Positions 7,109 through 42,846 of a DNA stretch of 64,000 nucleotides are shown here, in pieces. The DNA comes from a virus (taxonomy: Duplodnaviria > Caudoviricetes), in the IMG/VR virus record IMGVR_UViG_3300035505_000178; one strand, written 5' to 3'. The position numbers and the translations under genes were made by a program. Under the pieces are notes generated by a model, which was given only the letters and a program-made list of their open reading frames with translations, had not been told where the DNA came from and did not search any database. Every line of letters begins with the position of its first letter. Within the stretch, counting starts at the first letter, position 1.

Positions 7109-7122
7109 AATTATGAATTTTG

Positions 7123-7851: not shown

Positions 7852-7854
7852 ATT

Positions 7855-10446: not shown

Positions 10447-10447
10447 C

Positions 10448-12916: not shown

Positions 12917-13136
12917 TAAAATATCGAGATATTGTTTTCATCATGATGATAAAGACTTTATTGAAATAACAGAATGGACCAATGGAGAAGGATGGGATAT
13001 TGTTATAGATAATAAATATATTCATCTTACTCGTGGAGAATTAGATGCTATATTGTTATTAACTAAACTCTTAGACTATGAATATTTGGAAGAAGTTAAA
13101 ATTTCCATGGTACACAAGATGGGGAACAACTCTTGA
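12885..13136 (+). CDS. hypothetical protein
   Basis: FIEITEWTNGEGWDI motif. Confidence 0.7.
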   Translation: MERSERRSITDKISRYCFHHDDKDFIEITEWTNGEGWDIVIDNKYIHLTRGELDAILLLTKLLDYEYLEEVKISMVHKMGNNS

Positions 13137-14218: not shown

Positions 14219-14510
14219 TAATAGTTTTTATGCTCAGAGCTCTTCTGAAGCTAATTTAGACGCAATAGAAAAATTCTTTGACGCATGGGAAGGATTAGGA
14301 TATGATGTTGATGAGAAATATAGAAGAGATGATGAGTTAGAATATTATTTTGAATCTAAATGGGTTTTTCCAGAATCAGATATGGATAAATTATTTAATT
14401 CTATTCCAGATAAAAATGATATTTTTATGAGATGTCTAAGTGTAGATTACGGTGAACGCTATCATGCACTTTGGTTTTGTGAAGACGAAAATGGGTGGTA
14501 CGAAGAATGA
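14202..14510 (+). CDS. hypothetical protein (YubB/DUF1281 ferredoxin-like fold candidate)
   Basis: MANICDN start and FESKWVFP motif. Confidence 0.6.
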   Translation: MANICDNSFYAQSSSEANLDAIEKFFDAWEGLGYDVDEKYRRDDELEYYFESKWVFPESDMDKLFNSIPDKNDIFMRCLSVDYGERYHALWFCEDENGWYEE

Positions 14511-15172
14511 AAGTAGCAGCATTAAGTGATTTACATGGGTATCTTCCAGAAATAGAACCTTGTGAAGTAGTATTTATTTGTGGAGACTTTTCTCCAAGAG
14601 ACATAGAAGAAGATATTGTAGCAATGGAGGAATGGATTCTTGAAGAGTTCTTGCCTTGGGCTAACAATATTGAATGTGAAAAAGTATTCTTTATTGCAGG
14701 TAATCATGATTTTATAGCACGTCAAGACTTCATGTACGAAGTCTTTAATGACAAAGTTATTTATCTCTGTAATGATTCTACTCAATATGTTTCTAAAGAA
14801 GGTAAAATATATTCTATATTTGGAACACCTTATTGCAAACAATATGGTGATTGGGCTTTTATGCAAGATCCAATTGGACTAAGATTCCATTACGGAGATA
14901 TTCCATATAAAGTGGATATTCTTATGACTCATGATCAACCTTGGGGAATAGGAGATGTTACTTTACAAAATGTAAGCTGGAAAGGTGAGCATATAGGTAA
15001 TATTATTCTTTCTGAAGCAATATTAGAGAAAGAACCTAGACTTTTATTCTGTGGACATTTACATTCTACAGATCACAATCCTTTAAAAATAGGAAACACC
15101 ATTCGATATAATGTTAGTATAGTTGATGAAAATTACATGAAAGTATATGATATTACATATGTAGAAATATAA
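14507..15172 (+). CDS. calcineurin-like metallophosphoesterase
   Basis: SDLHG, CGD, GNHD, THD, GHLH motifs; ATGA overlap at 14507. Confidence 0.92.
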   Translation: MKVAALSDLHGYLPEIEPCEVVFICGDFSPRDIEEDIVAMEEWILEEFLPWANNIECEKVFFIAGNHDFIARQDFMYEVFNDKVIYLCNDSTQYVSKEGKIYSIFGTPYCKQYGDWAFMQDPIGLRFHYGDIPYKVDILMTHDQPWGIGDVTLQNVSWKGEHIGNIILSEAILEKEPRLLFCGHLHSTDHNPLKIGNTIRYNVSIVDENYMKVYDITYVEI

Positions 15173-15224: not shown

Positions 15225-15273
15225 TAAGGGGAATCTGAGAGCTTATTGCTTTTGGGTTCCCCTTATTTTTTTT
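15225..15273 (+). terminator. intrinsic terminator 2, tandem
   Basis: TAAGGGGAATCTGAGAGC-TTATT-GCTTTTGGGTTCCCCTTA followed by T8. Confidence 0.8.
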
Positions 15274-18200
15274 AGAACTATGTACCAGCGCCACCTCCGC
15301 CACCAGTTCCATTTTTAGTATCACGTTTATACATTCTATATGTATCTTGCAAAGATCTAGGTAAAGCCTAACTCTTTGTAATTAATTCTCCTGTAGTAGT
15401 ATCTCCGAATATATATCCAGCTAAATCTTTATATGTTTTAAATCCCCATTTGACAGCAGCAGGACTTGTATTATTCATAACATAATCAAATATAGGTAAT
15501 GGACCTTTAAACTCTTCAAAGCTACTTGTAAATCCTTTATATATAAGTTCTGTCATAGCATTTGCAACCACATTTTTTCCATCTCCTTCTTGTTTATGTT
15601 TTTTATAAGCAGGTGCTAATACATTTGAGCAGAGTTCATATAATAACATTGCTACAAGAAAATCAGACAATAATCTTCTAAGATTAGCTCTATTTGTCTT
15701 ACTTGATAAAATATTTTCTTTTATACCTTGAATACCTCTTCCTTCATATAGTTCTCCAAATACATCCTTTACCGTTCTCATTACACCTTGAACCATTAAA
15801 GGAATGTCCTCTAAATAAGGAATCCCTGTATCCTCAGTTGTGATGTTTCCATTTTCATCAATCCACAGTTTGTTACCATTTTCATCTTCTTTCTAAACTT
15901 TTTCAAATTCATAAGAAGATTCTCTACGACTACCAAAATAAACATCATATATACCATTTAACCAAGTAGAGAATACTCCAATCTAAGAACCTACAGCTAA
16001 ATTCTCATACATTGCTTTAGTACTTTTATCATAAGATCCATATATAGTATCTCCAAGATGTTTTACACTTTCAATTTGATTCTAAGTATATCCATCTGGA
16101 AGGTCAGTATCTAGTTTCAAAGTTAAATTTAATTCAGGATTTTGTTTATTAAATTCTTGTAAAAGACTTAAATATAAAGATTTCTATTTATTATATTCTT
16201 CTATGTTGGATTTATCATTTTTAGCTAATAAACTAAATCTTTTATCTTTTCTCCAATTATAATTTAATTTTCCATCCTTAATATCATACGCTTCGAAAGA
16301 ACCATCGTGTTTTAATTTAGCTAAGAACAATGTCATTCTATTTAAATAATCAGGCTTACTTAAAGAAAGATACATCCAATTACTAACATTAGTTATACCT
16401 CCTTTGTTAGTTTTATAACCTTGTTGCTATTGTTCACGATTAATATTAGAAATAAGATATTTACTATTCATCTTATCTAATAAATCGATACTCATTGAAG
16501 AATGAACTCCATGAGTTAATAAATACTAATATGCCCATAATACATCTGTAGAATCTACATCAGTTCTAAATTTAGTTGCACTTCTTACAACATTTGACAT
16601 AAATCCTCCTATTGTATCACGTATTGCAGCAACAGGATTCATTGCAATATAAGCAGTACTTATAGCTTTTCTCAAAGGAGCAATTTTAGTAATTATCTAT
16701 TTACTAGATTCTTCCATTATACTTCTATTAAATACCGAAGTTTTTAAATAATCGTCTATATGTTTAATAGTTTTAGCAAACTTCTAAGGATTTCCTTCTT
16801 CTCTAATTCCAGTTAATTTTAAATATAATAATATACCTCTAGATCTTACCAATGCTTTATTAAATTCTTCTTCCTTAAGATCATGATAAAGATAATCAAT
16901 TACTAAATTTTGAATGTTAGTTTCAAACTAATTAACACCAAATTTAGATATAAGTCTAGCTCTACCTTTTTTAGTTTCAGAACTTTTAAATTTATTATAC
17001 ATCTACATATTTTCAATGTATTTATTTACTTGTTCTTCTTCTTCCTAAGTCATAATACCTTCATATAATTCTTTAAACAATTCGGTAGGGTGTGTAGTAT
17101 AATACTTTGTTTTTCTTCCTAAATCTTCAAAAAATGCGGAAGGATTACTCCATTTAGTAGATTCACTAGCCTATTCTAATGGAACCCATAATGCATTCTC
17201 TTCTGTAGAAAGAATTGTTTTAAGATTATCTCTAGTTACATTTTGAATACGTTTAGAATTAATCAAATATAACACTTCTTTTAAAAATTCTCTTTCTTCT
17301 GTTTTTAAATTGTTTGTCATATCAAAAGGATTTTTAAAGAATAAATCATTATCTTTAAATTCTATTAAATTTTCAAAAACAGAACTTTGATTACCTACTG
17401 CCCAATTCTAAAATTTAGAATATCCTTTTTTCTCGTAATATTTTAAACACTTTAAATTGAAGTCAGAAACTTCTCCGTCAAGTCTGGTAGATATATTATG
17501 AATACCATCCTATAATAATTTACTAACAACTCTTACGTGAGAATTATCCATATTCTAAGGTCTTGCAAATAGACGTTCAAATTCTTCAACGTCTTTTTCT
17601 TCTATTCTTACAATTCCGCTAAGTCTATCTAATGCAATTGATGCATCAATTAATAATTTAGCAGCAGAAGAAATCATTGGATCTCTAGACTTAGATTTTT
17701 CAATAAGTGTATCAGGAGAAAGTCTAATTGCTTTTTCATTAAGGATTTTTGACAATTTATCAATTAATTCTTCTAACCTTGATATTTGAATTTCTGTTGT
17801 TTCGGCAGAAGCTAATGAATCGGATAAAACTCCACTAATGTCATGTCTCATTCCGTCAGAGTCAGATCCAGATATTAATTCTTTCAACTAATTTAAATCG
17901 GATTTAGATAAATCAGGATTATTTTGCATTATGCTATAATATTCATTTATAAGAACTGTAACTGGAGAAACATTTTCAATTTCTTTAAAATGATTTTCCA
18001 TTTTTAATTGAGGTTCTTTTTTAGATATTATAGAATAAGCTTTTACGAAGTTAGGTACAACCATTTGAATAGGATAACTTTGACTAGTAACATCCGTACC
18101 AAGTCCTCCTACAACTTGTATCTCTCCTAACTTAACATCGTTTCCTAGTGAAGGAATTATTTCATTTAATACGAACATTGTTCTCATCATTTCAATGTTA

Positions 18201-19870
18201 CCGTAAGTAGCTTTCAATAATGCTCTACCTTGACTATCTTGAGCATTCATGTCTGTAAGATGAAATCCTAGGATATTCTTACGACCATTAAGCTAAGTAG
18301 TTTTTGAAAGGTTTAAACTAGAAAGAGATACAATATTAAGTTGTCCTGATTTATTTTTAAAAAGAAGTATATTACAATTGTTTAAAGTAGGATTATCAAC
18401 TATTTCCCATTCATAAATAAATTTTTCTTTACCTGTCTCATCATTCTTAATTACTTTTGACTTTTCAAAGTAAGGATAAAAAAATTCATTCAAATAACTA
18501 TTATTGAAACTAGGAAATCCATTACGACGAGCACTTTTAAGTTCAGTTATTATACCTTGTGCGCTTAATGATCCAATATCTGATTTAAGTAAATCGTCTT
18601 TCATAGATTCTACAAAATTATAAACATCTTTGTTTTTAGAACCTCTTGTTGAATCCTCCGTCTAAAATTTAATTCCATTAATTGTTAATGAATAACCTGT
18701 ATCTGGCTATTCTCCTACTTCCCAATACTTCCAATTTTTATCAATGTATTCTTCTATTGTTTGAGTTACACCATCAGCTAAAACATCTTTACCTGGAAAC
18801 GCTGTTTTTAACTGTTTATTTATTTTGTCTATAGATTCATCATTTATTTTAATTTCATTAACGGAAGATCTTATAAATCTTTGAGCTTGTTTCATTTCTT
18901 CGTGCATAATGAAAGCTCCATTTTTATGACTATAACATTCAGAAGGATGTACTTTAATATCATCAATACCACTAAAATCAGAATTATAATCGAATACTAC
19001 AGGAACAACATTAAATCTTATATTCTTAGAACTAATTCCGTTATACTAAAGTATTTGACCTAATAATGCAAATTCATGTCTATATTTTTCTTTTTTAGCT
19101 CTATCCCAAAAACTAGGAGCTTCATGAGAAGTTTTAATATTATAAATTTCTAATGATCCATCAGGTTTAATAACTAAATAATCAATGTGTCCTACAATTG
19201 TTTCATTAGAATCTCCAAGTTTTGCAGTAACATTTAAATTTTTAATTACGTAAGGGGAAGAACTATCTCCAATTTCATGAGATTCCTTTCCATTTTTTAT
19301 ATATACCTACTTTAAAACGTCATCAGAAATTTCTCTCTAAATCTTTTCAGCTAATGGTTCGAAAGTTGTTCCCTTTGTTAGTTTTTCGGTTTGTGAATAT
19401 GTTCTATTATCTCCTAGAATTATTCTATGAAATTCTTTACCATCGTTACCTATTTGTTTCCAACTTTTCTATATATTGTAAATTCTTTGATTTATTTCTT
19501 CCTAAGATAAACCCTGCTCTGCATATTTAGATTTCATTTTATCTAAAAACTATTCATCATTTAAAACAGGCATAATAGGATTACCTTGAGTATCATTATA
19601 TTTATTAGAATCAATAAACGATTGAAGAGTATAATCAGCCCCTCCTTTTTCAATTTCACTACCATCATCGGTTATATGAGTAACTTTTCTTCCTTCATAC
19701 TCTTCCTTTCCTTTCTTTTTTATCTCTGATAATTTGTCGTATATCTTCTACTATGTATCATCATCTCTAGAATAAAGAATATCATGTAACTTGGAAGCAT
19801 CTTCTTTTAATTCTTCTGATAATTCCTAATATGAATATTCCTTGTTATTAAATACATATTTACATTCCAT
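15272..19870 (-). CDS. large virion cargo protein A (~1532 aa, TAG read through) with a PD-(D/E)XK-like domain
   Basis: Six ORF-track fragments share one frame from ATG (MECKY) to TAA (…GGGGAGTQF); GHIDYLVIKPDGSLEIYNIKTS near 19130-19200. Confidence 0.85.
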
Positions 19871-22599
19871 TATTCACAATTTTCTATTATACTTTTATTC
19901 TTTATTCCTTCAGAAATAGCATTAGTAATTTTTCTTTGTATTTGAGTGCTGTTAAGATTATCATTATTCCATAAACTATCAATTACCGTAGAAAAAGTTA
20001 CTTTACTATCTAATTGCTCAGATTTATTTAATCCTTTATTGAAAGAATTAAGAAATCTACTAAAAGTACTTTTAGGTAAAGTAAGAGTATCATTAAGTTT
20101 AGTAATTAATTCATCTGTAAACTTATCTATTTCTTCTTGAGAATTAGTTCTAAAAGCTTCTCCAAAAACTTTACTACTCTACACTTTATTACCTAAATGT
20201 CTTACTAATTTTTCTTCTAACTTATCGTAATAACTTAGATTCTTATATGTTTCCTAATCAACAACAGAGTCTAGATAACTTAATCTATTCTTACTGTTAT
20301 ATTTTGAATAAAGTCCTTTTAATAATTTAGTATAAGCTTCGAAATTACGACCTCTTATTATTCCAAACATTACATGTAAAGCTTCATGAATTAAATCAGA
20401 ATCTTTAGCTGTTGTTTGATTTATATAAATTGTATTATTATAAACGAAAGATTTTATTTTTGAAGTATCTTCGTCTTTATCAAATAAAAGTTTGTCACTT
20501 CCTGCTTCTTTTAATTCTTTCAGCTATTCATCATCAACTATTTCTATTTTCAATCCTTTAAAACGACTCTCAAACGAATCTTTTAAATTCCACAAAGAGT
20601 CTGTAAGACTTTTTACAGGCTTCTTAATATCCTTTCCACTATAATTTATATTTTCTTCTTTATAATGTCTAATGTATGCTTTATATTCCTTATTTGCAGA
20701 TTTATACATTTTATCGACTACAAAGAATTTTTTACCAGCATTATTAATATCCTATATTATAGTATTTATTTTAGACATTGTATCCTAAGAAAGGTTTTCA
20801 TTATCTTTTAATTCCTACTCTAATTTAGAAATAGATAAATCATTTTGTACCATTGCGTACATAAATGTTCCAACTTGTTCAGGAGTAGTAAAAGAAGATA
20901 TGTTTATACCGTATTTTTCATTATAAAATTCTATAATATGATCATATCTATTTTCAATTAAAGCTGAATCAGCAGAAGGAAGAGTAACTTTTTCTTCTAT
21001 TTTATAGTTTATACAAGATAACACCTATCCTACTCCTAATGGATAAGATAATGTAATAGTTCTAGTAGCAACTTCGCGCTTGAGATTAACTAACGCAGCA
21101 TCATTTACATTCTTATATCTATTAAACGCGTCTATTTGATTCTTACATTTTTCTATAGAATTGAATCTAGGAGCGTCATAAAGATTTGGAGATATAGGAC
21201 TAGATGTAATTACATATGTATCTTCGTTTTCAGGAATTTTATAAATATAATATCCGTTATAAGGAGTAGGTTCTTCAACAGTTTTAATTATTGAATCCCA
21301 TCCTAATCCGAATTGAGTTTCTACAGTTTGTCTATTTCTTGACAAATATATTGTACCTTCATCTGTAATATCTCTATATGCAATTGTTCGATTTCCGTTA
21401 TTATCTTTTACTACATAAATGTCTCTTTCTTTTCCTCCTATTTTTATAGTATGACCTTTAAAAAATTCTTGTGCTTGTTCTTCTGATAAACTATTAATAT
21501 CAAATTTTTCAGCATCAAGTTGAGTAGAATTTTTTAATTGTTCATTCTTTTCTTTAATTATTTTCTTTATAGTTGCTTTTAATCTTTCAGAAGGAACTGG
21601 TTTATAACCTTCTTTAATTGCAGTAACACTTTTGATTTCGTATTCACGTAATACAAAATCATTATCAAAATACTATTTTAATTCCTCTGATAATTCTTCT
21701 TGCGACAATTTAAAAAAATTATCTTTAGATTCATATTTCTTTTTAAATTCTTCAAAATTTTCAGATAGTATTTCATAGATTTTACCTTTCTTTATTTCTT
21801 CTAACTTCCAATCTCTAGAATTTTTTCTAAATTCATGAGCTAAGGGAGTATCGTTTTCCATAACTATCTAATCATTTAATTCTCTAAAGAAATTATCAAT
21901 TGTTTGGTTTATGTGTATTTGTTCTCCGTTAATTTCAAGGATTCCTTTATATTCCTAATCTTTTGGAACTTTATATAATGACTTATTATTTAGATAGTTA
22001 TTTATAAAGTCTTTAGTTTTATCAAATCCAAAATGTTTAGCTATTGCATTAATTTTAGACTCATATACTTTTTTTAAATGATCATCTTTTATTTCATTAT
22101 TATCAGTTAAAATAGCTTCTGCTTTTTTTCTAGTTCTTTCAGTTTTAGCAAATGCTTTTACGTCATTCTCATTTCTAAATATATATAGTACTGTATCTTT
22201 TAATCCTTCAACTGGAGTTTCTCCTTTTTTAGTTGAAGGTTTTATTACTATTCGTCCATATAATTTTTCACCATTATACGTTAAACGATCTCGTAACAGA
22301 TAATGATAAGGTTGATCTATACTGTCTATATCAGAAAATACATCTGGATATAATGATTTTAAATCGTCGAAAGAAGCATTAGGAAATATTCCAAATTTAA
22401 GAAAGTTACTTTTATCTGTAATGCTAATTGTCTTTCTAGATGATTGTAAATCATTTATTATTTGTCTTAATTCTCCTCTTTTATTTTCATTCAGAAACTT
22501 AATAATATCATCAAGAGACTCCAGCTCAACTTGGCTAGAGTCTCTTGTTATATTTATAACATTACCGTTTCCGACTTCTAAGATAATGTCACATTTCAT
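19870..22599 (-). CDS. virion cargo protein B (~909 aa, TAG read through) with a zincin domain
   Basis: Five fragments in frame; MKCD...ENCE-TAA with TAATG overlap; HEALH at 20374-20388 and a downstream EEKL. Confidence 0.85.
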
Positions 22600-22603
22600 T
22601 AAA

Positions 22604-25600
22604 TTAACAATTTTTATAAATTAATAGTCTTCCTTGACGTATAAATCTAATTAAAGTATTTACTTGTCCTCTTAAATCGTAGTCTCCACTTTCAGTAAAC
22701 AAATTTCTATTAGTAATTTTATTATGTAAATTCTAGAAAGAATATAACGATTCATCAAGATAACGTTTGAGTCTTTGTAATCTCTCACCTTCTGTTAATC
22801 CAGATCCTTCCAAATTAAGAGGGTATCCATTAAATACATAAGTAAATCCGTTCTTTCCGTCTTTAATTCTTTTAAATATTCTAATTCCGTTTGTTTGATC
22901 TGATACTTTAACATAAGGTTCAGTTCTATAAATAAGAGATCTTTCAGAATAAACAGTAGGAGCTATATAAACTAAGAAATCAGTTGTAGAATCCTTATCA
23001 TTCTCATCAGTAATCATGTCAATGATAGAATCACTCAATTCTTTAGAATCTTGTTTTCCAAGATACTAATAATATTTATATAATTCAGTTCCAGGTGTAA
23101 CAGATTCTGAGAATAAAGCTGTTAAAAACTTACCACCTAATTTGTTATTATTAACAGCTAAATTATATAGCATTAATATATCAGCAATTGAATAGTCTCC
23201 ATTAAATAATTCAGGATGATCTTTAGTTGATTCCTTTAATTCATTTAATGCAACTAAGTATTTATCCATTGTTTTACGATTCGAAAAGCTATCATCTATA
23301 GTAGATAAATCCAATTTAGTTTTTAATATAGTAATTCCTTTATAAGAAGTAAGAACTAAATCTTTAACTAAATCGTTGTCTCCATATTTACTTCTTAAAT
23401 AATCCAATAACTTTGTTTCAACAAAGTTCTTTAATGAATCTATTCCGTTTAAAGTATTTAAAAATATTTCGGATGCTGGCTATTCATCATATTCTGGTGT
23501 AAATTTAAATGTATCATCAAATCCTTTTAGACTAAGAGGTTTGTCTTTAGATAAGAAATATGATAGAACTATTACTTTGTCAGCATAATCGTTTATTTTT
23601 TTAAATAAAGCGTCATCATTTTTCATATAAGTTAGCGTAGGATTCTCAAGAACTCTATCAATAATTTTAGCTTTTACAGAAAACTATCTACGTTGCTATA
23701 ATGTATAATTAAGTAAATCTAAAATCTTGCTATAATGAGGAATCCTAGTTACTATATCTAAAACATTCCAATTGGATTTTATAAGATTAAAATATTTACT
23801 AGCTAATTCTCTATATGAAACTTGGTCACTATCAGAAGCTCTACTTGAATAATAAGTATTCGTTTCAGGAAGATATACTTTATCATTATTCAAAAATTTA
23901 TATAAATCAAAATTACCAAGCAATTTAGTTCTAGCTGCATCAATTAAGATTTCTCTTATTTCGTCATAAGTTAATTCTGGATTATTAGCAACAATATTAT
24001 TAATTACATTCTAATATTTTGTAACTAACTTACTATCATCTCCAGATACATTTCCTTGATCATCCATAGATTGAAGAATTTTAATGATTTGTTCATAATT
24101 CTCTTCACTCTCTGAATATATACCCATTGCATTCTCTCTTCCTGAAACTGTTCCGTTCATCTTTTTTATTAACTTAGTTAATAAAATATCTGTTTGAGGA
24201 ATACCTTGATTAAGTTTTAACCAAGTAGATGCTAAGTCAGAAGTTTCATTCGCTTGTTTAGTTACACTTTCAAATTCTGTTAAGTCTTCCGAAAAATTAG
24301 TTCCGTCATAGTTACCAACTCTATCATTTTCAGATTGAATAGCACTATTAATTTCAGATACTAAATTATTAATCATAGAGAAAGCATAATTAACAGACAT
24401 ATTGTTTGTATCAGTTGGTAACTAAGTTCCTTCTAACTTCTCCATTTCATCTGACTAAGATCTTCCTGTATTAGCTAAAATGTATGCTTGTAAAAATTCT
24501 CCAAATGTATTAGCTTTATATTTACTTCGTAAATCTGGAATGTATTGAAATACCCATTTTAATTTATCATTAACTGTTCTATCAATTTCTCCAGATTCTA
24601 ACAAAGCTATCTAACGTTCTGTTTCATATTCTTCAAGAAGTATTCTTTCTTCATAACTCATTCTAGGTGAAATTAAAATTCCAGTTAAATCGATGTTTCC
24701 ATTTAATAATTTAATTGCTGAATTTATACCTAAATTAAATTTCTAATATGAATTATTAGAAGAATATTTATCTATCATTTCAACAACAGGAGATGTCATA
24801 AATGCAACAATATCTTTAAGTGCAAATCCAGACATTATTAAATGTAAATAGTATTTAGCAAGATTAGTTCCACTATTAATTTTTGAAAGAATCAACTCTT
24901 TAGCATTATCGGTTGCTGCAGAAAGTAACTGTGAAATCATTAAGTCAACTTGTTTGTCATCCATTTCAGCAATGAGTTCATCAACATTATTGAAATCTTT
25001 TCCAAACAATTCTTCCATTTTACGTTTTATTCCAGGATCAGAATTCCACTAATCAGGAATATAACGAACAGTAACAGATTTAAGTTTTCCATCAGCTCTA
25101 CCAGCAATTCTATTATATGTATGAGACATTTTCAAATAAAAAAGATCATTTGGATTATTAGATCTTAATATCATTTGATAATATTGAGTTAAATTGAACC
25201 AATCCTTTTCACCATTTGCAGCAATACCAATTACATCTTTACCTATAATGTTTTGATTTTGCATTATATATTTAGCAAAAGGATTTAAACTATTTAACTA
25301 TTTTGTTTTTTTACCTTTTGGAGAATTTTCTGCCTATGCACGAAGATCTTTCATTGTAATAGGAGAATAAGCATAATATCTATTTCTAATACTATGAACT
25401 ATTGTAAAAATATTAGAACTTGCACTATTCTTAAAAGCAGCAGATCTTAATTTATTAGAACTAGGCTAATACTTCTCGTGATTTTTGATTTTATTTATAA
25501 TTTTTTGTTTAGCTTTTTTATCTTCATCGTCAGCAAAAGTATAATTATATTTTCCGTCATTATCATCAATCTTTTGAATTAGTTTAGCGTATAATTTAAT

Positions 25601-28600
25601 TCTATTTGCTTTTATTTTTTCATTATTAATAGCGTCCAAATCTTCTGTAATGTTATAATTACTTCCTTCAGTTACAACTAAATTAGTTCTTTTTGGAATA
25701 GGAATAGTTTTACTTGCTTCTAGTTCCTAAATAGTATTATAACTAAATAAAGAACTCCAACCAACATAAACTCCAGAATCACCAAAAGATTGTCCCATTA
25801 TATATGCCTTATCAATATCCAGTATTACCTTATGTCTTTCAACATAAGCTCGACTATATCATCACTTGAAATCAAGTGTCTCGCGCTTCGGATTTCTCCT
25901 ACTCCCTTCCGGGATAGTCTGTGAACTTTCATCCTTATAGGATGCTTAGCTGCGGATTGTCCAATCTTATATACTTTTTACTATACCAATAGTAGTTAAT
26001 TATTGCCATTAGATATATTTCTACTCTAATTTAGTATATATAAGCTTAAGGAGTTTCCCGCAATTCACGAGATTTTATGACTACAATATTTTATCTAGTT
26101 AAACTAGAAAGGATCATGTCATACTACTCTGGTATAATAGTATCAATAGTCTGATCCTTGAAGATATGTTTGAATATGACTTACATAAGCAGTATTATTA
26201 CTTCCTTGGGTCCAAGCTACACATTTCATGGGCATAAATGATTGTAAAGATTGAGCAGGAATACGAGAAGATATAAAATGTAAAGAAGCAAGAAACGAAG
26301 AATATTGTTTCTTATAATATCTGTTATCGGAAATAAATTTATTCTTTTCGTTTTTATAATTTTTTGAAAAATCTTCTCCTGAATCTAATGCCTCTATTAT
26401 AGCTTTTATATGATTATTAAAATTATTAGAGTCATTATCTTCTACTAATTGTTGTAATTTAGATTTGATTATTTCAGTATTTCCTCCATTGATCATATCA
26501 GTATTTAACTATACATCCACAAAATTATCAGATCCATATATTTGCTTTACTATATCATCTGGAGCTTTTTGAGTAACTTGATAAAAATCGTATTCTGTAA
26601 GTGCTTCTTTATTATTCTAAACACTTAATTTAATTTTACGATATTTTTTTACATAATCAATCCTACGAAGTATTTCTACTCCTGAATCCGTTTTTACAAT
26701 TTTATATTGATTCTTATCTAATAATCTATCCTATTCGTCATATACAGCCTCATGACTTATAATTTTTCCATCAGAATCTTTCTTTTCTTCTTGATATTTA
26801 TATTTATTATCTTTTACATATTTTCCTACAGTAATTCCTTTATATTTTATATAATAATCTCCTGTCGGCTTATTACTTTTAGGATCTAATATTTTTTCTT
26901 CTGTTTCTTTATCAAAGTTAACTTTATAAACATTTTGATCCTTTATTTCTTTATCAAAAGAAATTAACAAATGTTTTCCATTTCCTTTTATAAAAGCTAC
27001 TGTATGTTGTCCTTTTGGAATTTCAGTGATTAAGCCTTTTCTCTTTTCGAGATTTATGAAATGGTCTTCTTCTGAATCTATCATTTCAGCTAAAGATTTA
27101 TCTCCTGTTTGAAATGTTTCTTTATACATATTTCCCAGTATTACCTCAGCTTCTGTATTTTCAAGACTTCCTTCAATTATATCTATTTCCTATCCATCAA
27201 GAACAAATTTACCTTGATCTAATTTGTCAAGAACTTCTTGTATCTCTCGTTGTTTTGGACGTTTACTTTTATCCAAATTCCAAGAATTTTTAATAATAGG
27301 ATGATCATAGATATTCATATATCTCACTTTTCCATCTTTATTTAAATATTGCCAACGAATCAATGAAGGTTTCAAATTATATGCTTTGGTAATATTTAAT
27401 TGATACATATGTTTTATTTTATCTATTTTACCATTTTCTCTAAAAGATTTTCCTACTATTTGTTCAGCTGCTTTTATTAAATTTTCATTAGTTGTACTTG
27501 TTATTACCCAATCTCCATATGTATCCTTAGAGAATTGTCTAGACAAAACTATTTCTTCACCTTGTGAGTTTTTAATACTGTATTCAGTATTAGATTTCTT
27601 TTCAATGTTAACATCATATTCAACCTCAATATCAAACAATCCGTCTTTAAATTTATAATAATCTGACATTGAGTCTAAACGAATTGGTTTCGATATAACC
27701 TATCCTTTCTCATTTAATATATTTACAATATCAGTTGGCATGAACCAATCTTTATATCTGATATTGTCTTTACTATTTTGTTTAGATTGTAAATATATAT
27801 TAACCAGATTTTTATTATATTGTGTAACATCAGAAACTTCATCATAATTTGTTAATAAACTACTTAAATACGGGTTAGTTATTTCTAAATTTTTATTTCT
27901 AACTTCCTATATTAATTTAGATAAATCAAAGTTTTTAACTCTATCTTCACCACCTAATATGTGTATTAATTGTTGCCTAAATGAAGTCTAAGCTTTTTTA
28001 AGTACATCCTAAAACATATATTGTCTATAACTATGTGTTTTATCATCCCATATTTGGAAATATTGCATCATATTATAACCTGGAACCATTACATATGGAG
28101 ATCCTGGATGTCTACGTTTAATAGAATTTTTATTAATAGTTGCTGTAAGAGCTGTTATAAATTGTCGATATAAACTAGGATCACTAAATGGAATAAGTAA
28201 CTCAGTGTTATTACTTTTGTTTCTATTATTTTTAAATTCATTAGCTATTTCAGATTTTATAATATTAGTTAAGTCAAACTAATTGTTACTATCAGAATTA
28301 ACTATTATTTTTCCAACAATCCTATATAATTTATATCTAGCTTCTTCAGGATCAGTTGAAACAAAATATTGTAACATTGAATCTAATTCTTCTTTTGATT
28401 CTTCATAAGCTGTCTATCCTAAACTCATATAAAGTTCATTAGCGTTATGATACATTTTTCCATAAGCAGCACAAGCAGCAATAACCTGAGAAGCTTCTGA
28501 AGAAGTAGAATCCACTATATCATGGTCAGCATTTAACTAAATTCCTAATCCTGCAATTTTAAGATTGAATGTTCTTAATTTACTATTATCAGTCCAAGCA

Positions 28601-31600
28601 GAAGCTTCATTCATATTTTTTGCTCCGTTTTTTACAGCAGTACTATTAAAAACATAAGCTATGAATTTATTTTTTAACACTTGATATATTTTTCCATCAT
28701 TGGTATATCCACAATTTATTACAAAATTAGTTAATGCTTGATGAATAAAATCTGATACATTTCCGTTAGTATCAACACAATTTACTCCTCCTAAAGCAGT
28801 GAATAATTCAAATAAAGTATTAATACTTCTTGCTCCTCCAGTAGTAGAATGATTAGAATCCTCATCAAAATAATGTTTTACAATATATCCAAGATCTACA
28901 TTTTTATTATTACCAGTATAATTTAACTAACTATATTTTCTTTCTCTAGTAAAATAAATTCCATCCTCATCTCTTCCAAAGTCAATTATTTCTATTAATT
29001 TTCCGTCTTTATTTTTATATATTAATTTATTTCCTTGTAAAATTCTTTTTCTGAAAAAATTAGGATCAATTTTGTTAGGTTGAGAATCTCTTATGTAATG
29101 CGTTAAATTTGTACCTTCATCAAATTCAATACTATGCATTTTCTTGAACATATTATAATCAGAAGAATCAGATTCTAAAGATTGTAATAATGTACTAGTT
29201 GTTTGTCCGAAAGCAGCAAATTTAGCTAAAAAAGAAGTTAAATCAGATGTTTGATCATCCCAGATAGGTTTACGATTAGTTCCTACTGCTTGACTACCTA
29301 ATGAATTATTTTCAAGAATAACCTATATTGAAGACATTTTGGCACTACCATCACAAGCATCAATTTCATCAGATTCAGTTAAGTTATTGACAGGAGCTTG
29401 CATGTCTTTTATACAAGCAACAATAACTTCATCAGCGGACCCATTAAGTTTTCCAGAAATAAGATGTTGTAACGTAGCAGGAATAATTACATTACGTTTA
29501 TACTACGTTCCTTGAGCAGTATTAATTATAGAAATTATAGAATCATTATATACCTCTGGAAGAACAGTTTTTAAATCATTTAAAGAACCTTCGTTTAATA
29601 TTTTTACTACATTAGAATCTTGTTTATAATCTAATCCTGTGATTTCTTTAAACTTTGAAAGTGAATCTTCGTCCTTAGGATTTTCATTAAGCTTACTTAC
29701 TAAACTTTTTAATTTGTTAAAAGTAGTGTCATATTCTTTATCTGGATGATTAATTTCACTTCCAGATAACAACAAACGCATATTATTACTTGCAAGACCT
29801 TCAATATAGAAATATTTTTCTAACAAAGGATTTAATATTGTTTCTCCGTTTTCTGAAAGTTTATCAGTAATTAATGTACCTGTATTCTTATCAATCCAAT
29901 TGTCTACAAATTCTTTTCTCTTTTCTTTGCTATCAAGAATTTTACTACTAGATAATATTTTTAATATAACTCCGTATCTTGTAGTATCTTCTTCTCCTAA
30001 TTTACTTACATTAATCCACTCGTCTAATTCTTCTTTAGTATTAAAAACCTATAGATTAATTCTATTATCCTTTAACTATTGAACAAATATTTGTTTCTGC
30101 TAATTAAAATACTTGATTAATTTTTGATTAGTCTAATCTGTATATAAATCGTTGTAAAATATCAACATTTCGTTTATATCACAAAATTTACGTCCTCCAG
30201 ATTTTTTTTCTCGATAGTCTTTATCAAGTTCTAACTCAATTTTATTCTATGAATTAGCTTGATTATATCTATCTACAACTTGTAATAACTATTCTGCAGT
30301 TTTAGACTTTAAATAATTTCTAACATCATCAATAGTTAATTCTTTTGTAGGATCTGAAAGATCAAATCGAAGTAATGCTCTATATTTATCAAGAACATTA
30401 CCTAATATTCTAGAGTGAGCTTGAAAGAATGTAGTTTTATATTTAAGAATGGCTTCATCCTGAATGCTATGATCTAATTTCATTACTTGGTCTCCATCCT
30501 CAAATATTCCCAAATCACATAAATAATTTAAAAAAGCTGTTTTATCAGAATAAACTGTTGGCTAAAAACAAATACGTCCATCTCTAATAAAAGAATTAAA
30601 AAATTTATCAAAAGCTGCGTGATAAAATAATTCTCCTGATGTCATATCTCTAACTTTTTTAACATCTCCGTTAACAGTAGTAATTTCTTCGTCTACAACA
30701 GGATCTATAGTTAAACTATTTTTTCCAGTATTTATAAATAATAAACATCCAGCAGGATTATTCTCCTCACGTCTATACTTATCAAGTCGTCTGTATATTT
30801 CAGACCCAAGACGTCCAACACTAAAATTAGAAACCTAATCTCCAAATTTATTTAAAGAAGTAGACTTAACAGATTTACCTGTAATAATATAACTAGATTT
30901 TACAAAATCATCAATAGCTTGATCATTATTGATTAATCTAATTAAATGAGATCCGTCAAGCTATTTAACAACAATATCTGAAATAGTTTTAGCTGATTCC
31001 TATTTAATTAAATAATCATATTTACTTCCTTCGGTAATAGCATTATTTTCAACATCTGCTGCTCTTAAACCTAGCAATAAAAAATGTTCTAAGTAGTTAG
31101 TTCCATAAAGTTGATTATCTCTATCTTCTTTATAATGTTCCTTATAATACTAAAGACTTGCTAATCCAGTTTCAGATAAGATTCCTAAGTTTGTATAATT
31201 ATCTACAAACCTAAGAAGATTATACAATAATCTTTCATTATCGTTATTAAAGTTTTGAGATTCTCCTAAACAATTATCAGCAAACTATATTAAATCAACT
31301 TTAGCTAAATCATTAAGTAACTCTTTATTTATGAGTTTAAAATCACCTCTAGAAGTTAATAATCCATATGGATTCTAAACACCACATTTATATTCTAAAC
31401 CAATTTGATGTTCTTCTCCTTTTAAATCTTTAATTTTAATAGTTGTCTAGTAAGTTCCTTTTTCTGTTTCAATATCGCTGAATCCAAATGTCGTTAAAAA
31501 GTCTCTTCCACTTTTATGCATTTGATTCATTTTACTTTTGTAGTTAATTGTTTCAATTTGATCAATAACACTAGAATCCCAGATAAATTTACGTTTTATG

Positions 31601-33357
31601 GAGAAATCTCCTTTTCTAGAATCCGTGTTTATGAAACTATTTTCTACATTTCTATATAACAACGATACTAATTCAGAACTAATTTCATTAAACTCATTCG
31701 TAGAACCTATTCTACTATTTTCTTTAGAAAAAACAGATCCTGAATTTTCATTTTTATCCAGCGTATATTTATAAAAAGAATATAAAATGTCTATATCCTA
31801 ATTATTTAAATTAGTACGGGAAGTAATTTGATCAATTAAATGATTATCAAATAAATTACGAAATAAATATTCAACTTTCTTAGTAGTATCTACATCAATA
31901 GTACTTATTAATCTCTTAAAAATAGTTTCGATATCCCTTCCACTAAATCCTGTTAATTTATAACGTTCTGTTGAACCGTTATGTTCTTTTTCATTAGGCC
32001 ATTGACCACTAAATTTAAGTTTTCCGTTAAATAAATCATCCTTAAATGTATTCCAAGCATGTAATAAAGATACTAAGGTCATTTGTCTCTAAGATAACTT
32101 ACTTGAATCAGAATAAACTAATACAGGAATTTGTTTTAAAATTTCTTTTACATTAGTATCAGTATGAGAGTCACTACTCTTATTCTCACTTTGTCCAAAT
32201 GTAGAAGTCTGATGTTTTTTATTGTCTTTTATAGTATATTTTGTACCTTCTATATAATAAGGATGAACATTAGCTATAAAATCTTGTTCTAATTTAATAC
32301 CAAGATCACTCAAATCAAGAAGATTATCAAACCTTGTTAATATAGTAAAATCATTAATAACACTCAAAGTTTTAAGATTATCTCCAGGAAATTCAATTTC
32401 ATCAAATATCTAAGATAATTCTTCGGACATTTTTTCAAAGTCCTATATGGCATTTTTTATTTTATAATACTGATTAGAAAAATCAAATGCTTGAAATAAC
32501 TAATCTTTTAAATTGTCATTATAAAGAACTTTTAAATCTTCATCGCTTTTTATAAAATCTAAAACTTTTTTCCAATTTTCAATTTGAGATTTTCTATAAC
32601 TTCCAGATTGATTTGCGTGCCATGCTTCATATAACTTCTTTCTATCAACAGTTTTAAGAAAATCATTAAATATTCTTATAACTTTATAATAACCACTGTC
32701 ATTAAAAATTTTATCGTTATATAACGAAAGAGAATTTAACTGTTTTAATATTTCTTCATTATCTTTATATTGTTCCTTTAAAAAGTTAACAATATTATCA
32801 AATTTTTGAATTTTATAGTCTGTAATTCTCCTGTTCATTTGAGCTACAGATAAATTTAATTTTCGAGAATCATCATAGATTAAAAGTCGATATAAATTTT
32901 TTCTGAAATCGTTTTTTACACTTTCAATAACATTTGTATAAAAGCCATATATATTTCTTGCAATTTCTTTAAATTCAACTTCTTTTTCTCCCTAAACTTC
33001 TTCCTAATCAACAGGACCTTTTTCCTCCATATCGGAGCTTTCTCCGACAAGGTTCATGTCGAAGAAAGCATTCAATATGGCTTTTACTATATTAAGTTTA
33101 TTAGGATTAGTTTGAAATGAAAGAGCTCTATTGTCTAAAAGCTCTTTAAACGATTTAATATCTTCATCGTTTTCAACCTCTGACAAATTAATCTTATTAT
33201 TAGATCCTTTTCTAAATTTTTCTTTAACTTGTGCTACAGCCCAATCAATAGAATTTTCAGAATGATTTGATATTGCGTCATCAATAATTCTAGTAATTTG
33301 ATACTTTGCAATATTAAAATCTTTTTTAGAATAAACTAAATTACACTATTCTTTCAT
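22604..33357 (-). CDS. virion-packaged two-barrel RNA polymerase (protein C, ~3475 aa; exons 33357-26146 and 25819-22604; TAG read through)
   Basis: SRIPAQ motif and catalytic GSDY|DIDK formed on splicing (crAss-type DxDID); DGSAK, KRNV, GIQ motifs; all fragments are in frame within each exon. Confidence 0.9.
25820..26145 (-). ncRNA. group I self-splicing intron, no ORF (326 nt)
   Basis: 5' exon GACTAT pairs with IGS GTAGTC (U.G pair); P GAATTGCGGGAAAC, Q AATCCGCAGC, R TTCACAGACTA, S GATATAGTC; P3 TCTCG/CGAGA; P10 AATATT/GATATT; terminal G; removal reconciles the frame difference between exons. Confidence 0.93.
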
Positions 33358-33363
33358 ATAAAC

Positions 33364-36300
33364 TTAACATTTAAATAATTCTTCTTCTATCTATTTCAAC
33401 TAATCTTTATATTTGTCTTTTAATTCCTCTGAAAGATCCATAAAGACATCAACGAAACCTTTAACTTCTCTTGCTATTTCAATAAAACGTTCCTTATTTT
33501 TAATCTCTATGAATCCAGAATCTTCCAAATCTATACCGTAGTTCTTAGCAAATTCAATAACATCTTCATCTTCAATGATATCAAGATATGCTTTTTTAAA
33601 AATTTCAAATTCTTTATCTTCATTTTTAAATTCTTTTGGAATTATAGAATTATCCTCTTCTTTATCAAAGATTTTAAATTTAATAATTCCATTTCCTAAA
33701 ATATCGGATTTTTCAATTTTTCCTTTAATAGGTTTACCATTTTCTTCTCCTCGAAATTCTATTATTCCTTCATCATAAGAAATATTGGTTATATTTATAT
33801 TATTACCACCTATAAGATTACTTTTAATAGTTCTAATAATTATTTCTTTTTTATTATCATTTATTATTCCATGATTAATAAAATCAAGAGTATATTTCAT
33901 AGGTAAATCTTTCACAAATTGAGTTAAAAGCTCTTCAAAAGATGTTTGACTATTTTCCCTTTTTCCAGCATCTACTTCATCTATAAAATCACTAATAACC
34001 TCCTTAATTTCATTTGAAGAAATTTCTACATTAAATAATTTTTTAAATTCATCCTCAGTTAAATCTATTAGATTATCTAAAAAAGTATCATTTGAATGTA
34101 TTTGTTCTTCTTTAGGTTTGTTAGATTCTTCTGGATTAAAGTATTTTTTCTTAATATTTCCAATATTTACTAATATTCCTCCTGGAACTACGTCTACGTC
34201 AACATCAAAGAAAGCTGGATTTGTACCACATTTCAAAAGAATATAATCTTTTTTCTCAGTACCACCGTAATTCAAAACGTCATAATTTGAAGAATGCTCT
34301 AAATAAGGATCTATATAAATTCCATATTTAAAAGGAGCATCTTCTGTATATGCATGACTTTTGTGAATATTTTCATTAGTTCCGTGGAATATAAAATTAA
34401 ACATTGTAAACAATGTATTATCTCCAGAAGAAGTATGTGTTAACATATCATCAGCAAATAATTCAGAAATATCTGCTTGATAAATTCCTTCTTTATTATC
34501 CCCTTGAGTTCTAATATTAATTAATCCACTACTTCCTTCTTCTTTTTTAGAATATTCTTTAGCTTTATAAGTAACTAAACTAATAGCTTTTGGTAAATAA
34601 CTAAATAAAGAATTGCATATTACTTCAATAGGTTCACCTCCCTAAGGATCGGGTTCCTAAAGAATAAGATACTTAATTTTATTATTAGTTTTAAGTTTAA
34701 TCTATCCAGTAAGATTTCTGTTTTCTTTATTTATAAATTCGTCTTTAGGATATTCTGTTCCATCACTGCGAACTAAAGTTAATTCCATAGACCTAGCAAT
34801 ACTTTCAGCTTCATCAGAATTTTTCTAACCTATTAAGCTAAAGACTTTATCTAATAACTTTAAATATTTATTGGCAGTTTCTGGATTAAGAGTTAATAAA
34901 TTGACTGAATCTTTATTTTTATAATATCCATCAGGACTTACTTTGAAATTTCTAACATAGCCTCCGATTTGTGATCCTGTTAAATCAAATCCTAGTCTAA
35001 ATATAGGAATATTTTTTAATGTTTCCTAATTAAATTCATTTAACTTCTATAAATCTTCATCTGCGTTATAATCTCCGTAATAAATTGATTTAAGTTCTTC
35101 ATCAGATTTATTCTCGAAGTTTACTTTTCCAGGATATTTTTGTTCAATTTCATCTTTGTGATGTTCTACATAAAGTTTAGATTCTAATTTTAATAATTTG
35201 TCTAATCTTTCATCATCCCATCCATTCTATTTTTTAAATTCAGATAATTCATTATTGAATTTGATCAATCCTGCTCTGAAGTTCCACATTGCGTTGAACA
35301 TTCGTACTCCTAATACATCCATTCTCCAAGGTTTCTTTATCTTTCCTTTGGCACCAGAATTAAAATGTTCAAGTCTTTGATATACAAGATCAGAAAAACT
35401 TAATCCTTTATTATCAAGAACTATACATCTAACTTCAGGATTGTTGTTTTCTGGATCCTTTTTCTATTCAATATATCTGTCAATTAATTCATTTTTAGGA
35501 ATTGATTTATTAGATGAAACAAATATTACAGCTTTTCCAAGTATTTCATTTGGAAATAATCTTCCTTCTGACTTATTTTTATCATTTATAATATAGACAT
35601 CAGATATTACTTCTGAACTGTTTTTATCTAAGAACGTATTATTGTCTTCTTTATAATTTCCCGATTCGTCTACGTCATAACTATCAACAGTTTCAACACT
35701 AACTCTTCCACCTAAACGTCTAGCTTTTTTTCTTTTTACAAGTCTTGTTGTTTTATGAGATTTATAATCGTCTTCATCAAGATCAATTCTAAATCCATCT
35801 TCCTAACCATTTAATAAAGTTTCAACAAAACTTTTATACTATTTTATAGATTCATCAAAATTATCACGAAAAGTTTGTAATCTTTTTCGTTCTTCAGAAT
35901 CTGGAGATTTCTTCCTAATTATTTTATCAAGATTATCTAATATAGCCTGACGTTTTTCTGTTTTGCTTACTTCATTAAAATCAGTTAATAAACTAATATC
36001 AAACAAAGCAGTAAAAGTTTCTCCTGCTATTTCAAGATTATCGACTTGATAAACTAAAGAAATTACGTATTTAGTTCCGTTAATATCTATAAAAGTAGGA
36101 TCTAAATCAACATTAATTCCAAAATAATCAGAAGATGTTGCTTTTCTTACTTCAAGTTGTAATTTTCCTTGTTTGAACTTTTTTCCAAAATTTGCATCTC
36201 CCCAATATATATCAGTGTTTGATAAACTACCATTATTAAACACAACTGCACGTTGTATAGCTTCGATTTTACGTTGAAGTTCAATCTTACTGTTATAACT

Positions 36301-42300: not shown

Positions 42301-42846
42301 TTTATCATATGTCGCAAGTACTAACGGGTCTTTAAATAAATCACCTACCCATTTTACAGGATTTGAAAATAACGCTCTATCATTTGGAGTGTCATCTATA
42401 AATTCTCCTGTCTCTGGATCATATATTTGTTGACTCTATGCAATTTCTTCTTGGGATTTAGTTGGAGCACTTATAGTTCTCCAACCTTCTACTCCCATCT
42501 TAACTCTATCTGGATTTTGATTTAATCCTATAGAAAAATAATTATCTTTAGTTCTTGATTTTCTAGCAGCAGTATCAAACGGATCTAATTTAAGTCCTTT
42601 TGGAAACTCGTTGCTTTGAAAACTATTCCACCTTTGTAACTATGCATTATAAAATGCATCAAATTTATCTTCGGAAAATTCTCCGTTTTTATCTTTAAAT
42701 GCGTCATTCTGTTTTATAAAGTTAGACTTTAAATAGTCTTCTTTACTCAACATCTAAGTGTTATCTGTTGTTAATCCACCTACACCTGTTAAATCTTCAA
42801 CATCTAAATTAGGATTATTTAAACTTGCTACTATCCAATCGTTCAT
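33364..42846 (-). CDS. giant virion cargo protein D (~3160 aa, TAG read through) with an SF1 helicase domain and hydrophobic N-terminal region
   Basis: Nine fragments in frame from MNDWIV to ...LFKC-TAA; Walker A GVGGAGKT (38023-38046), FVDEA, LTESLRS, VQGQEYDYV, YTLMSRAK. Confidence 0.87.

Follow-up and report, generated by a model that had tools for sequence, protein, structure and literature searches.

Paired terminal cysteines at the breaks between giant virion RNA polymerase cargo proteins of crAss-like phages point to a probable head-to-tail tether

A recoded and intron-split RNA polymerase cargo block

The window, the whole 64,000-nt stretch of Caudoviricetes DNA analysed here (IMGVR_UViG_3300035505_000178), carries a block of giant genes that breaks up into fragments of at most 348 aa when translated with table 11 and opens only with TAG as a sense codon. 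Reading TAG as glutamine afforded four products, D, C, B and A, all encoded on the minus strand and comprising 9,076 aa in total. D (33364..42846, 3160 aa) is the first protein of the proposed chain, followed by C, by the zincin-like protein B with its HExxH motif (19870..22599, 909 aa), and by A (15272..19870, 1532 aa) as the last. The start of each downstream chain gene is the first ATG past the upstream in-frame stop. Next to D lie two further minus-strand genes, the neighbours E (42849-44684, 611 aa, one cysteine) and F (44681-49690, 1669 aa, no cysteine).

One point is to be added to an earlier sequence-only reading of this DNA: gene C is not a single open frame but, with TAG as glutamine, falls into two open frames (26143-33357 and 22604-25798) that represent two exons split by a group I intron. 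Exon 1 (26146..33357, minus strand, 2404 aa) encodes the N-terminal part of the virion RNA polymerase (RNAP) and ends in ..QGSDY, exon 2 (22604..25819, minus strand, 1071 aa) starts with DIDKAY, and the intron between them (25820..26145, minus strand, first codon TGA) lies within the catalytic motif. The intron scored 85 bits with the covariance model of Rfam RF00028, above the gathering score of 50 (E 5e-22), and removal of 25820-26145 joins ..GSDY to DIDK.., thereby restoring the GSDYDIDK catalytic motif in frame. The intron was missed by a whole-window Rfam scan at gathering scores and detected by a local E-value scan; some relatives carry the intron and others lack it.

The functional labels given to the four proteins in that first reading fared unequally. 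The RNAP label of C is borne out by the spliced product, which carries the two-barrel RNAP motif G-x-D-x-D-x-D as GSDYDIDK, and exon 1 matched MT835470 with an E-value of 1e-57. Equally, the conserved HExxH agrees with the zincin label of B, being invariant in the B alignment (H738, E739, H742), in which C3 and the C-terminal cysteine are also invariant at 22-23% identity. The helicase label of D finds a Pfam match to AAA_30, but this match remains below threshold (E 0.0013), while the nuclease label of A gained no support in Pfam or PHROGs. With these two collections, A, B and C matched no family, and D gave nothing beyond AAA matches below threshold. Neither tblastn against the phage collection nor a single-sequence IMG/VR scan recovered relatives of B, and relatives were obtained only via C and via alignments.

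By synteny, D is the counterpart of the gp47-like protein (crAss001 gp47, phi14:2 g067), and the gene order F-E-D-C-B-A is the same as in the relatives L001 and L002 and in phi14:2-type loci, with cysteine-free cargo-like genes, a gp47-like giant gene, the RNAP gene and a gp49-like gene following in order. Judged by motif and gene order, D, C, B and A are the window's form of the virion-packaged RNAP cargo block of Crassvirales, known as gp47/gp50/gp49 in crAss001 (Bayfield et al. 2023, PMC10172136) and as g067/g066/g065 in phi14:2 (Drobysheva et al., 10.1101/2020.03.07.982082), where it was also reported that some phages fuse these genes into a polyprotein that is 'likely cleaved'. Common to all are giant proteins, the RNAP GxDxDxD motif, a zincin-like partner and, in the published genomes as in the window, the terminal-cysteine rule described below, whereas the window differs in its four proteins, its TAG recoding and the group I intron in the RNAP gene. 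As mass spectrometry located gp47, gp49 and gp50 in the crAss001 virion (PMC10172136) and the cargo proteins in that of phi14:2 (sequence record notes), the four giant proteins of the window are, by homology, probably packed in the virion and injected as well.

Cysteines at facing termini

On the TAG=Gln translations, each junction of the block is flanked by two cysteines. D ends in ..EELFKC (TGT codon, 33367-33369) and C starts with MKEQC (Cys codon 33343-33345); C ends in ..IYKNC (22607-22609), the sole cysteine of exon 2, and B starts with MKC (22591-22593); B ends in ..IENCE (19876-19878) and A starts with MEC (19862-19864). The claim that all six inner termini, and neither the outer termini nor those of E and F, carry a cysteine was confirmed: a cysteine lies within five residues of the end at 6/6 inner and 0/2 outer termini (D starts MNDWIV, A ends ..GGGGAGTQF), and the termini of E and F are free of it. 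As E and F are nearly cysteine-free and have no terminal cysteine, we place both outside the chain. The chain proteins had also been described as cysteine-poor, and rightly so, with 32 cysteines in 9,076 aa (0.35%) compared to a mean of 1.17% over the 28 other genes of the window, although the 26 internal cysteines make this chain less cysteine-poor than those of the extreme lineages. Among the 28 control genes, a cysteine within five residues of the end occurs at no N-terminus and at two C-termini. The probability of finding cysteines at 6/6 inner ends is ~1.5e-11 when calculated from the chain cysteine frequency and ~2e-8 when calculated from the control frequency.

The pattern was then surveyed in relatives, of which the RNAP pattern G[SAF]D[FY]D[IV]D[KS] retrieved 505 from IMG/VR. 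The sample consists of 45 RNAP-block lineages from the best 80 of these 505 and of 13 GenBank phages, and includes p-crAssphage, crAss001, phi14:2, a cyanophage and phi17:2. Among the matches listed for the 45 IMG/VR lineages, 42 same-strand junctions were present; the upstream C-end carries a cysteine within ten residues in 41/42, and the downstream N-end carries one within nine residues in 39, or in 41 after the re-calling of two starts. Again among the matches listed, cysteines are absent from the outer C-ends (0/34), while other ORFs at the surveyed loci show a terminal cysteine in up to ~10% of cases. Scoring inner against outer termini across Crassvirales, fused and split forms included, was the test put forward in the first reading, and it came out strongly in favour of a pairing of facing ends.

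Individual genomes display the pattern in an almost pure form. The terminal cysteines are the only ones in D (2967 aa), B (804 aa) and A (1525 aa) of MT835470; phi14:2 g067 has a single cysteine as its last residue, g066 has two, at positions 3 and 2179 of 2180, and g065 has one at position 3. Every pair is kept in two syntenic relatives at ~30% identity, ORFs equivalent to E and F upstream in relatives contain no cysteine, and the pattern recurs in crAss001, DAC15, p-crAssphage, crAss002, cr3_1 and cr118_1 as well as outside Crassvirales, in Leptolyngbya phage Lbo-JY46 and Cellulophaga phage phi17:2. In 26-sequence alignments, the invariant residues of the RNAP C-terminal 400 aa are only Y137 and the terminal cysteine C392, and those of the gp49-like N-terminal 400 aa only M1, C5 and N123. 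Two exceptions were observed, namely lineage L088, in which the junction lacking the pair is a split of the RNAP into 1803 + 474 aa, and IAS virus gp055/gp056, with a cysteine on the C-side only and ambiguous bases in the record; each of them may be a sequence error or a true exception.

Gene fusions and splits were compared next. Not a single cysteine occurs in five polyproteins that are fully fused (5636, 5005, 5542, 5472 and at least 3998 aa), while partly fused forms retain exactly one cysteine per remaining inner end, as in a 4424-aa protein ending in ..FEC followed by a 1663-aa protein starting with MATC; the fused p-crAssphage gp44 and crAss002 gp33 likewise have no cysteine close to the fusion point. 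Conversely, D of MT835492 is split into two genes, the first ending in ..EACKVIA and the second starting with MQSNC, at a position where unsplit D proteins have no cysteine. The number of terminal cysteines is twice the number of breaks, and a new split gains both together. Chance or mere inheritance was rejected, since the pattern follows independent fusions and splits. That the cysteines are lost on fusion shows them to be of importance at free ends alone, and their presence in pairs at nearly every break, their absence in fusions and their gain at a new split support a specific pairing of C-end with N-end.

The bond itself is invisible in genomic data, and the terminal cysteines could instead bind another partner, such as the same terminus of a second copy, the portal, an inner capsid protein or a packaging factor, so that no linear chain would form. 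Each cargo protein may indeed be packed in several copies (PMC10172136), and the inner N-ends share a loose motif (Met, one to four residues, Cys and hydrophobic residues, often with Pro next) that could serve as a recognition tag. Such a third-party partner would, however, leave unexplained why only facing ends are marked and outer ends never are, and we consider it improbable. The head-to-tail partner is inferred from the bare outer ends and from parsimony; loss of cysteines on fusion would on its own be no proof of it.

A cause at the level of the mRNA was also considered, in which the TGT codons would act as a translational coupling signal or as a take-off and landing pair for bypassing of the T4 gene 60 type. 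The junctions of the window do resemble such a pair, with a TGT before the stop, a second TGT 11-21 nt further on and a recurring upstream AATTGT. Nevertheless, no downstream gene is without an ATG of its own, which lies one to four codons ahead of the cysteine, sense codons follow the upstream TGT at several junctions (B/A of the window, D/C of L001 and L002), phi17:2 has an extra gene inserted between two partners, and the F/E and E/D junctions are tightly coupled yet lack TGT. Above all, the C-terminal cysteine, usually the sole one of the protein, is retained by 18/18 gp47-like genes that lie convergent to the RNAP gene, and the N-terminal cysteine of the RNAP is kept. These opposite-strand cases rule out an mRNA-level cause, to which we attach next to no probability, and with it the junction nucleotide motif AATTGT...ATGnnnTGT as the origin of the pattern.

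Other known routes of joining or modifying termini were rejected as well. A split intein or protein trans-splicing would find no space for intein halves, as the cysteines lie 1-10 residues from the ends; Pfam scans of five products returned no Hint/intein families, intein blocks are absent, and no His-Asn was found ahead of the N-terminal cysteine. Asparaginyl ligation, hinted at by the Asn-Cys ends of this lineage, does not agree with other lineages, which end in IC, RC, MC, ECK or KCN, and lipidation was dismissed for want of signal peptides.

Nature of the link

A head-to-tail tether without a disulfide, held by a shared metal ion or cluster or by some other enzyme-made covalent link, would yield the same comparative pattern as a disulfide. 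A metal bridge needs no oxidising environment and would suit phages of the anoxic gut, and a zincin motif is present in B. Metal sites, on the other hand, normally need three to four fixed ligands, whereas each end offers a single cysteine, placed anywhere between 1 and 10 residues from the terminus, with no enrichment of His, Asp, Glu or extra Cys within four residues. This lack of further ligands, together with the variable spacing, agrees better with a simple disulfide between flexible tails than with a built metal site, and the strong avoidance of cysteine across all cargo proteins fits a danger of stray disulfides. We give the non-disulfide tether a small chance only. It counts against disulfide formation that assembly takes place in the reducing cytoplasm and that the gut lumen is anoxic.

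Precedent for disulfides between virion proteins is provided by the cryo-EM structure of crAss001, in which cysteines of the gp57 dimer, the tail hub and the ring proteins form intermolecular bonds in purified particles (PMC10172136). The role of these bonds is to stabilise the fixed tail and the portal vertex, whereas the proposed cargo bonds would link mobile proteins end to end and would need to come apart once delivery is complete.

Co-folding of the termini was carried out on crAss001-type sequences with the C-terminal 400 aa of the RNAP and the N-terminal 400 aa of the gp49-like protein, each with its own alignment. The score of 0.41, compared to 0.00 for the best of three controls, lies in a range (at most 0.60) in which the calibration mark, reached overall by 58/80 solved complexes and 2/110 mismatched pairs, was attained by only 7/80 solved complexes plus both mismatches that passed. 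The runs share at least 28% of contacts, with a partner pLDDT of at least 62. Co-folding lends weak support to the pairing, and the weak signal suggests that the terminal domains of the RNAP and the gp49-like protein may also touch non-covalently.

A proposed cargo thread and its setting

We propose that the C-terminal cysteine of each cargo protein pairs with the N-terminal cysteine of the next, so that the separately translated D, C, B and A would be tied head to tail into one thread of ~9,000 aa, most likely by disulfides that take the place of the peptide bond of the fused forms; from the comparative pattern, we assign this reading a probability of about 0.6. The assembled or released virion would be the place in which the intermolecular disulfides form; they would do the job that the peptide bond does in single-polyprotein relatives, the avoidance of cysteine in the remaining cargo sequence would prevent wrong cross-links, and the host cytoplasm would reduce the disulfides after ejection. 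On the further step, a 'polyprotein after translation' of crAss-like phages and their relatives in which a thread of ~1 MDa, joined by single terminal disulfides, would be ejected whole and parted by reduction in the host cytoplasm, our judgement is evenly balanced.

Alternatively, the tether could be real and serve fixed 1:1 co-packaging or the stability of a stored complex rather than threading during ejection. Ejection is not addressed by sequence data, and the weak co-fold signal hints at a non-covalent contact; on the other side, disulfide formation in the cytoplasm during assembly is unlikely, and single-chain forms exist both in relatives and in the vRNAP of coliphage N4, a polymerase likened to beads on a string and proposed to cross the narrow tail in an unfolded or loosely folded state (PMC13434306). 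These single-chain forms suggest that continuity of the chain matters for passage, and we regard the packaging role on its own as rather unlikely. N4 gp50 (Schitoviridae) resembles the window's cargo as a giant polymerase that is stored in the capsid and leaves through a narrow tail, but it is one continuous polypeptide of ~3,500 aa with an unrelated polymerase fold, for which no terminal-cysteine link is involved or described.

Regarding the working principle proposed for the head-to-tail disulfide, the closest likeness is offered by AB toxins of the diphtheria and botulinum type, in which one disulfide holds two chains together while one of them crosses a narrow channel unfolded, and reduction in the cytosol then sets it free. 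The parallel is a likeness only, the window side being known from its sequence pattern. AB toxins are unrelated proteins, the setting in the window would be a phage tail, and the toxin chains are cleavage products of one precursor, whereas the cargo chains are translated separately and number up to four or five in series.

In the human gut, no viruses are more abundant than crAss-like phages. How an RNAP cargo of ~700 kDa to 1 MDa is delivered through a narrow tail is a question raised in previous studies (PMC10172136, PMC13434306). Cysteines found only at facing ends, gone in fusions and gained at splits suggest a covalently continuous cargo thread as a testable model, and reduced and non-reduced mass-spectrometry runs of crAss001 virions exist (PMC10172136). 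If true, gene fusion and linkage by a cysteine pair would be two exchangeable ways to the same end, with reduction as the switch that both releases and activates the virion RNA polymerase. No mention of the terminal cysteines or of a link between the three proteins was found in PMC10172136 or 10.1101/2020.03.07.982082, and no published description of a terminal-cysteine tether was found in the literature; such an end-to-end tether, probably a disulfide, is probably new to description. The terminal-cysteine rule may also aid annotation, as it marks true starts and shows which giant genes belong to a chain; by this measure, the annotations of crAss002 gp33 and similar genes seem overlong.

Gene organisation and terminal cysteines in the window

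Translation of the region between 15 and 50 kb with table 11 gave short frames only, and reading TAG as Gln revealed tightly packed giant genes on the minus strand. In this reading, the cargo genes D (33364–42846, 3160 aa), C (RNA polymerase, RNAP; two pieces, spliced product 3475 aa), B (zincin-like; 19870–22599, 909 aa) and A (15272–19870, 1532 aa) together encode 9,076 aa, with the neighbouring genes E (42849–44684) and F (44681–49690) lying upstream of D. The left plus-strand genes (1–15172) are nearly TAG-free; each of the large minus-strand genes (15272–64000) requires 10–48 TAG read-throughs, and no tRNA genes were found in the window.

The gap within C is a group I intron (25820–26145, minus strand, limits set by exon joining; Rfam RF00028, 85 bits, E 5e-22) that was not picked up by the whole-window Rfam gathering scan. 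Exon 1 ends in ..QGSDY and exon 2 starts with DIDKAY, and splicing regenerates the crAss-type virion RNAP catalytic motif GSDYDIDK, inside which the intron is placed exactly between GSDY and DIDK. Its presence varies between close relatives, being found in some loci (MT835470, L001 23454–24513), with an uninterrupted RNAP in others, such as L014–L017; L012 was a further locus compared in this respect. The MT835470 intron encloses a 234-aa ORF (L001 23748–24452), the N-terminal LLGDG of which resembles a LAGLIDADG homing endonuclease.

At each junction of the four cargo proteins, a Cys near the end of one protein faces a Cys near the start of the next, namely ..FKC and MKEQC (D/C), ..KNC and MKC (C/B), and ..NCE and MEC (B/A). 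A terminal Cys is absent from the outer ends (D start MNDWIV, A end ..GAGTQF) as well as from E and F. Cys content amounts to 0.35% in the chain versus 1.17% in the 28 other window genes, among which a Cys within 5 residues of the end occurred at 0/28 N-ends and 2/28 C-ends; the probability of all six inner-end Cys arising by chance is ~1.5e-11. Retranslation bore out the sequence-only reading in all six inner termini as written, in the lack of Cys at the outer, E and F termini, and in the Cys-poor nature of the chain. The C-end of A is glycine-rich in the window (..TGGGGGAGTQF; 15275–15300, minus strand), and the A proteins of relatives end acidic (..KEDTE, ..YYEEN).

Terminal cysteines across and beyond Crassvirales

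Through C only, two relatives with ~30% identity and identical gene order, MT835470 and MT835492, were retrieved from the phage collection, and both retain every terminal Cys pair (inner starts MAC or MSC; inner ends ..NC, ..IC, ..NCKLNI and ..NCSINLV). All Cys of MT835470 (standard code) in D (2967 aa, one), B (804 aa, two) and A (1525 aa, one) are terminal. A three-way alignment of B (22–23% identity) contained invariant C3, C-terminal Cys and HExxH, and an IMG/VR scan with this alignment yielded 28 further loci, all with the C/B and B/A pairs.

The same rule was found in published genomes. In phi14:2, g067 (1797 aa) has its single Cys as the last residue, the RNAP g066 (2180 aa) has two, at positions 3 and 2179, and g065 (1421 aa) a single one at position 3. 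In crAss001, gp47 ends in ..RCNS and gp49 starts with MAKKC, neither with any other Cys, and the RNAP gp50 starts with MSKRC and ends in ..ICGANTLYEL. DAC15, p-crAssphage, crAss002, cr3_1, cr118_1 and IAS virus obey the rule, IAS virus being partly excepted at one junction. Outside Crassvirales, Leptolyngbya phage Lbo-JY46 encodes a 1552-aa protein with its only Cys as the last residue, followed by one of 2748 aa with its only Cys at position 4, and Cellulophaga phage phi17:2 has the series ..FMC / MASC...KCN / MSC. Since Lbo-JY46 (cyanobacterial host) and phi17:2 encode gp49-like homologues plus terminal-Cys pairs, the cargo chain is older or more mobile than Crassvirales.

An IMG/VR scan for RNAP motifs, from which the best 80 of 505 loci were reduced to 45 lineages, gave 42 same-strand junctions. 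Across these lineages, a Cys lay no more than 10 residues from the upstream C-end at 41/42 junctions and no more than 9 from the downstream N-end at 39/42, or 41/42 after two start re-calls (in both, the upstream gene overlaps the first ATG, and translation from the second gives MAKKC or MSC), compared with 0/34 outer C-ends (within 10 residues) and a background of up to ~10% in other ORFs of the same loci. In 26-sequence alignments of 400 aa each, the only invariant residues, Y137 and C392 at the RNAP C-terminus and M1, C5 and N123 at the gp49-like N-terminus, included the terminal Cys. The terminal-Cys pattern is confirmed and valid across and beyond Crassvirales, and the comparison of inner with outer termini suggested by the sequence-only reading, fused and split forms included, came out in its favour. 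Two exceptions, an RNAP divided as 1803 + 474 aa whose break lacks a Cys pair (L088, 7430–14268) and IAS virus gp055/gp056 (L032 11019–20001; Cys on the C-side only, record with ambiguous bases), could reflect assembly error, recent mutation or true departures from the rule.

Inner N-ends in L041–L120 follow a loose motif of Met, 1–4 small or basic residues, Cys, two hydrophobics, one residue and often Pro (MAKKCAIIP, MSKSCVINP), which occurs on RNAP and gp49-like proteins and is depleted in Asp and Glu. Annotated or first-ATG starts appeared over-long at L034 9270–22007 (crAss002 gp33), L114 6566 and L065 14028, where a second ATG 14–32 codons downstream gives MSC or MAKKC, matching the family rule; the rule may help in correcting start calls. 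Terminal cysteines are unmentioned in Bayfield 2023, the Drobysheva preprint, Yutin 2021, the epsilon-group paper and the 2026 N4 paper, and in the 2023 Crassvirales review, where 'disulfide' likewise does not occur.

Fusions, splits and the mRNA level

Drobysheva et al. (bioRxiv 10.1101/2020.03.07.982082) state no more than that fusion of the three proteins occurs in some phages and that they are 'likely cleaved'. Among the best 80 of 505 loci, five lineages carry a single full fusion (5636, 5005, 5542, 5472 and at least 3998 aa) with zero Cys, and partial fusions have exactly one Cys for each inner end left, for example 4209 aa ending in ..KICP, then 1206 aa starting with MAC; 4424 aa ending in ..FEC, then 1663 aa starting with MATC; and 3890 aa ending in ..NNCK, then 1167 aa (MASC...QNCK), then MSSC. 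The zero-Cys polyproteins (L105, L106, L107, L108, L115; IMG/VR) span the whole RNAP cargo block, and cargo-like ORFs adjoining them upstream are Cys-free too. In p-crAssphage gp44 and crAss002 gp33, where the RNAP is fused to the gp49-like part, the fusion point has no Cys within hundreds of residues on either side. Extra pairs occur at extra splits (MT835492 D1/D2, window B/A, phi17:2 gp038 and L120). The new ends of D in MT835492, ..EACKVIA and MQSNC, correspond to about residue 1442–1446 of window D, and unsplit D proteins have no Cys at the matching position. As extra splits bear extra pairs and fusions lose them, the Cys count in the cleanest lineages equals twice the number of breaks.

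The junctions share a DNA repeat, AATTGT..TAA..ATGnnnTGT, and therefore a translational coupling signal was considered, as was bypassing of the gene-60 type, in which TGT codons would serve for both take-off and landing. Such an mRNA-level cause was rejected: every downstream gene has its own ATG, sense codons follow the upstream TGT at several junctions, F/E and E/D are equally tight without TGT, and an unrelated gene is inserted between two partners in phi17:2. Moreover, in crAss001-type genomes the gp47-like gene is convergent to the RNAP operon and still ends in Cys in 18/18 lineages, usually as the sole Cys in the ~1000 aa seen.

A possible link between consecutive cargo proteins

Judged by the pattern, one thiol is needed at a free C-end and one at the free N-end of the protein that follows, none is needed at outer ends, and neither is needed where a peptide bond joins the two; the simplest reading of the pattern is a specific head-to-tail link between consecutive proteins. 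A disulfide is favoured as this link because each end has a single Cys at variable distance from the terminus (last or second-last residue in 30/40 C-ends, position 3–6 in most N-ends), because His, Asp, Glu and further Cys are not enriched nearby, because Cys is strongly avoided throughout the cargo proteins, in keeping with a risk of cross-linking by stray thiols, and because crAss001 virions contain intermolecular disulfides (PMC10172136). Of the ejection chain proposed from sequence, the comparative part held; the bond and its role in ejection are inferred.

A tether could provide a single threading event, a set order and 1:1 delivery, and cytoplasmic reduction could then release the tethered parts, much as the parts of AB toxins are released by reduction in the cytoplasm. 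The cytoplasm in which assembly takes place is reducing, and the gut lacks oxygen; both bear on when the proposed bond would form. In crAss001, gp47, gp49 and gp50 are located in the virion and thought to cross the tail partly unfolded (PMC10172136), and N4 performs the same task with a single beads-on-a-string polypeptide (PMC13434306).

The co-folding of terminal peptides envisaged in the sequence-only reading was run on the crAss001-type RNAP and gp49-like terminal 400 aa, and weakly favours a contact between them, with a score of 0.41 against 0.00 for the best of three controls. The benchmark mark was attained by 58/80 solved complexes and 2/110 mismatched pairs, with 7/80 solved complexes and both passing mismatches scoring 0.60 or under at that mark; the runs share at least 28% of contacts, with a partner pLDDT of at least 62.
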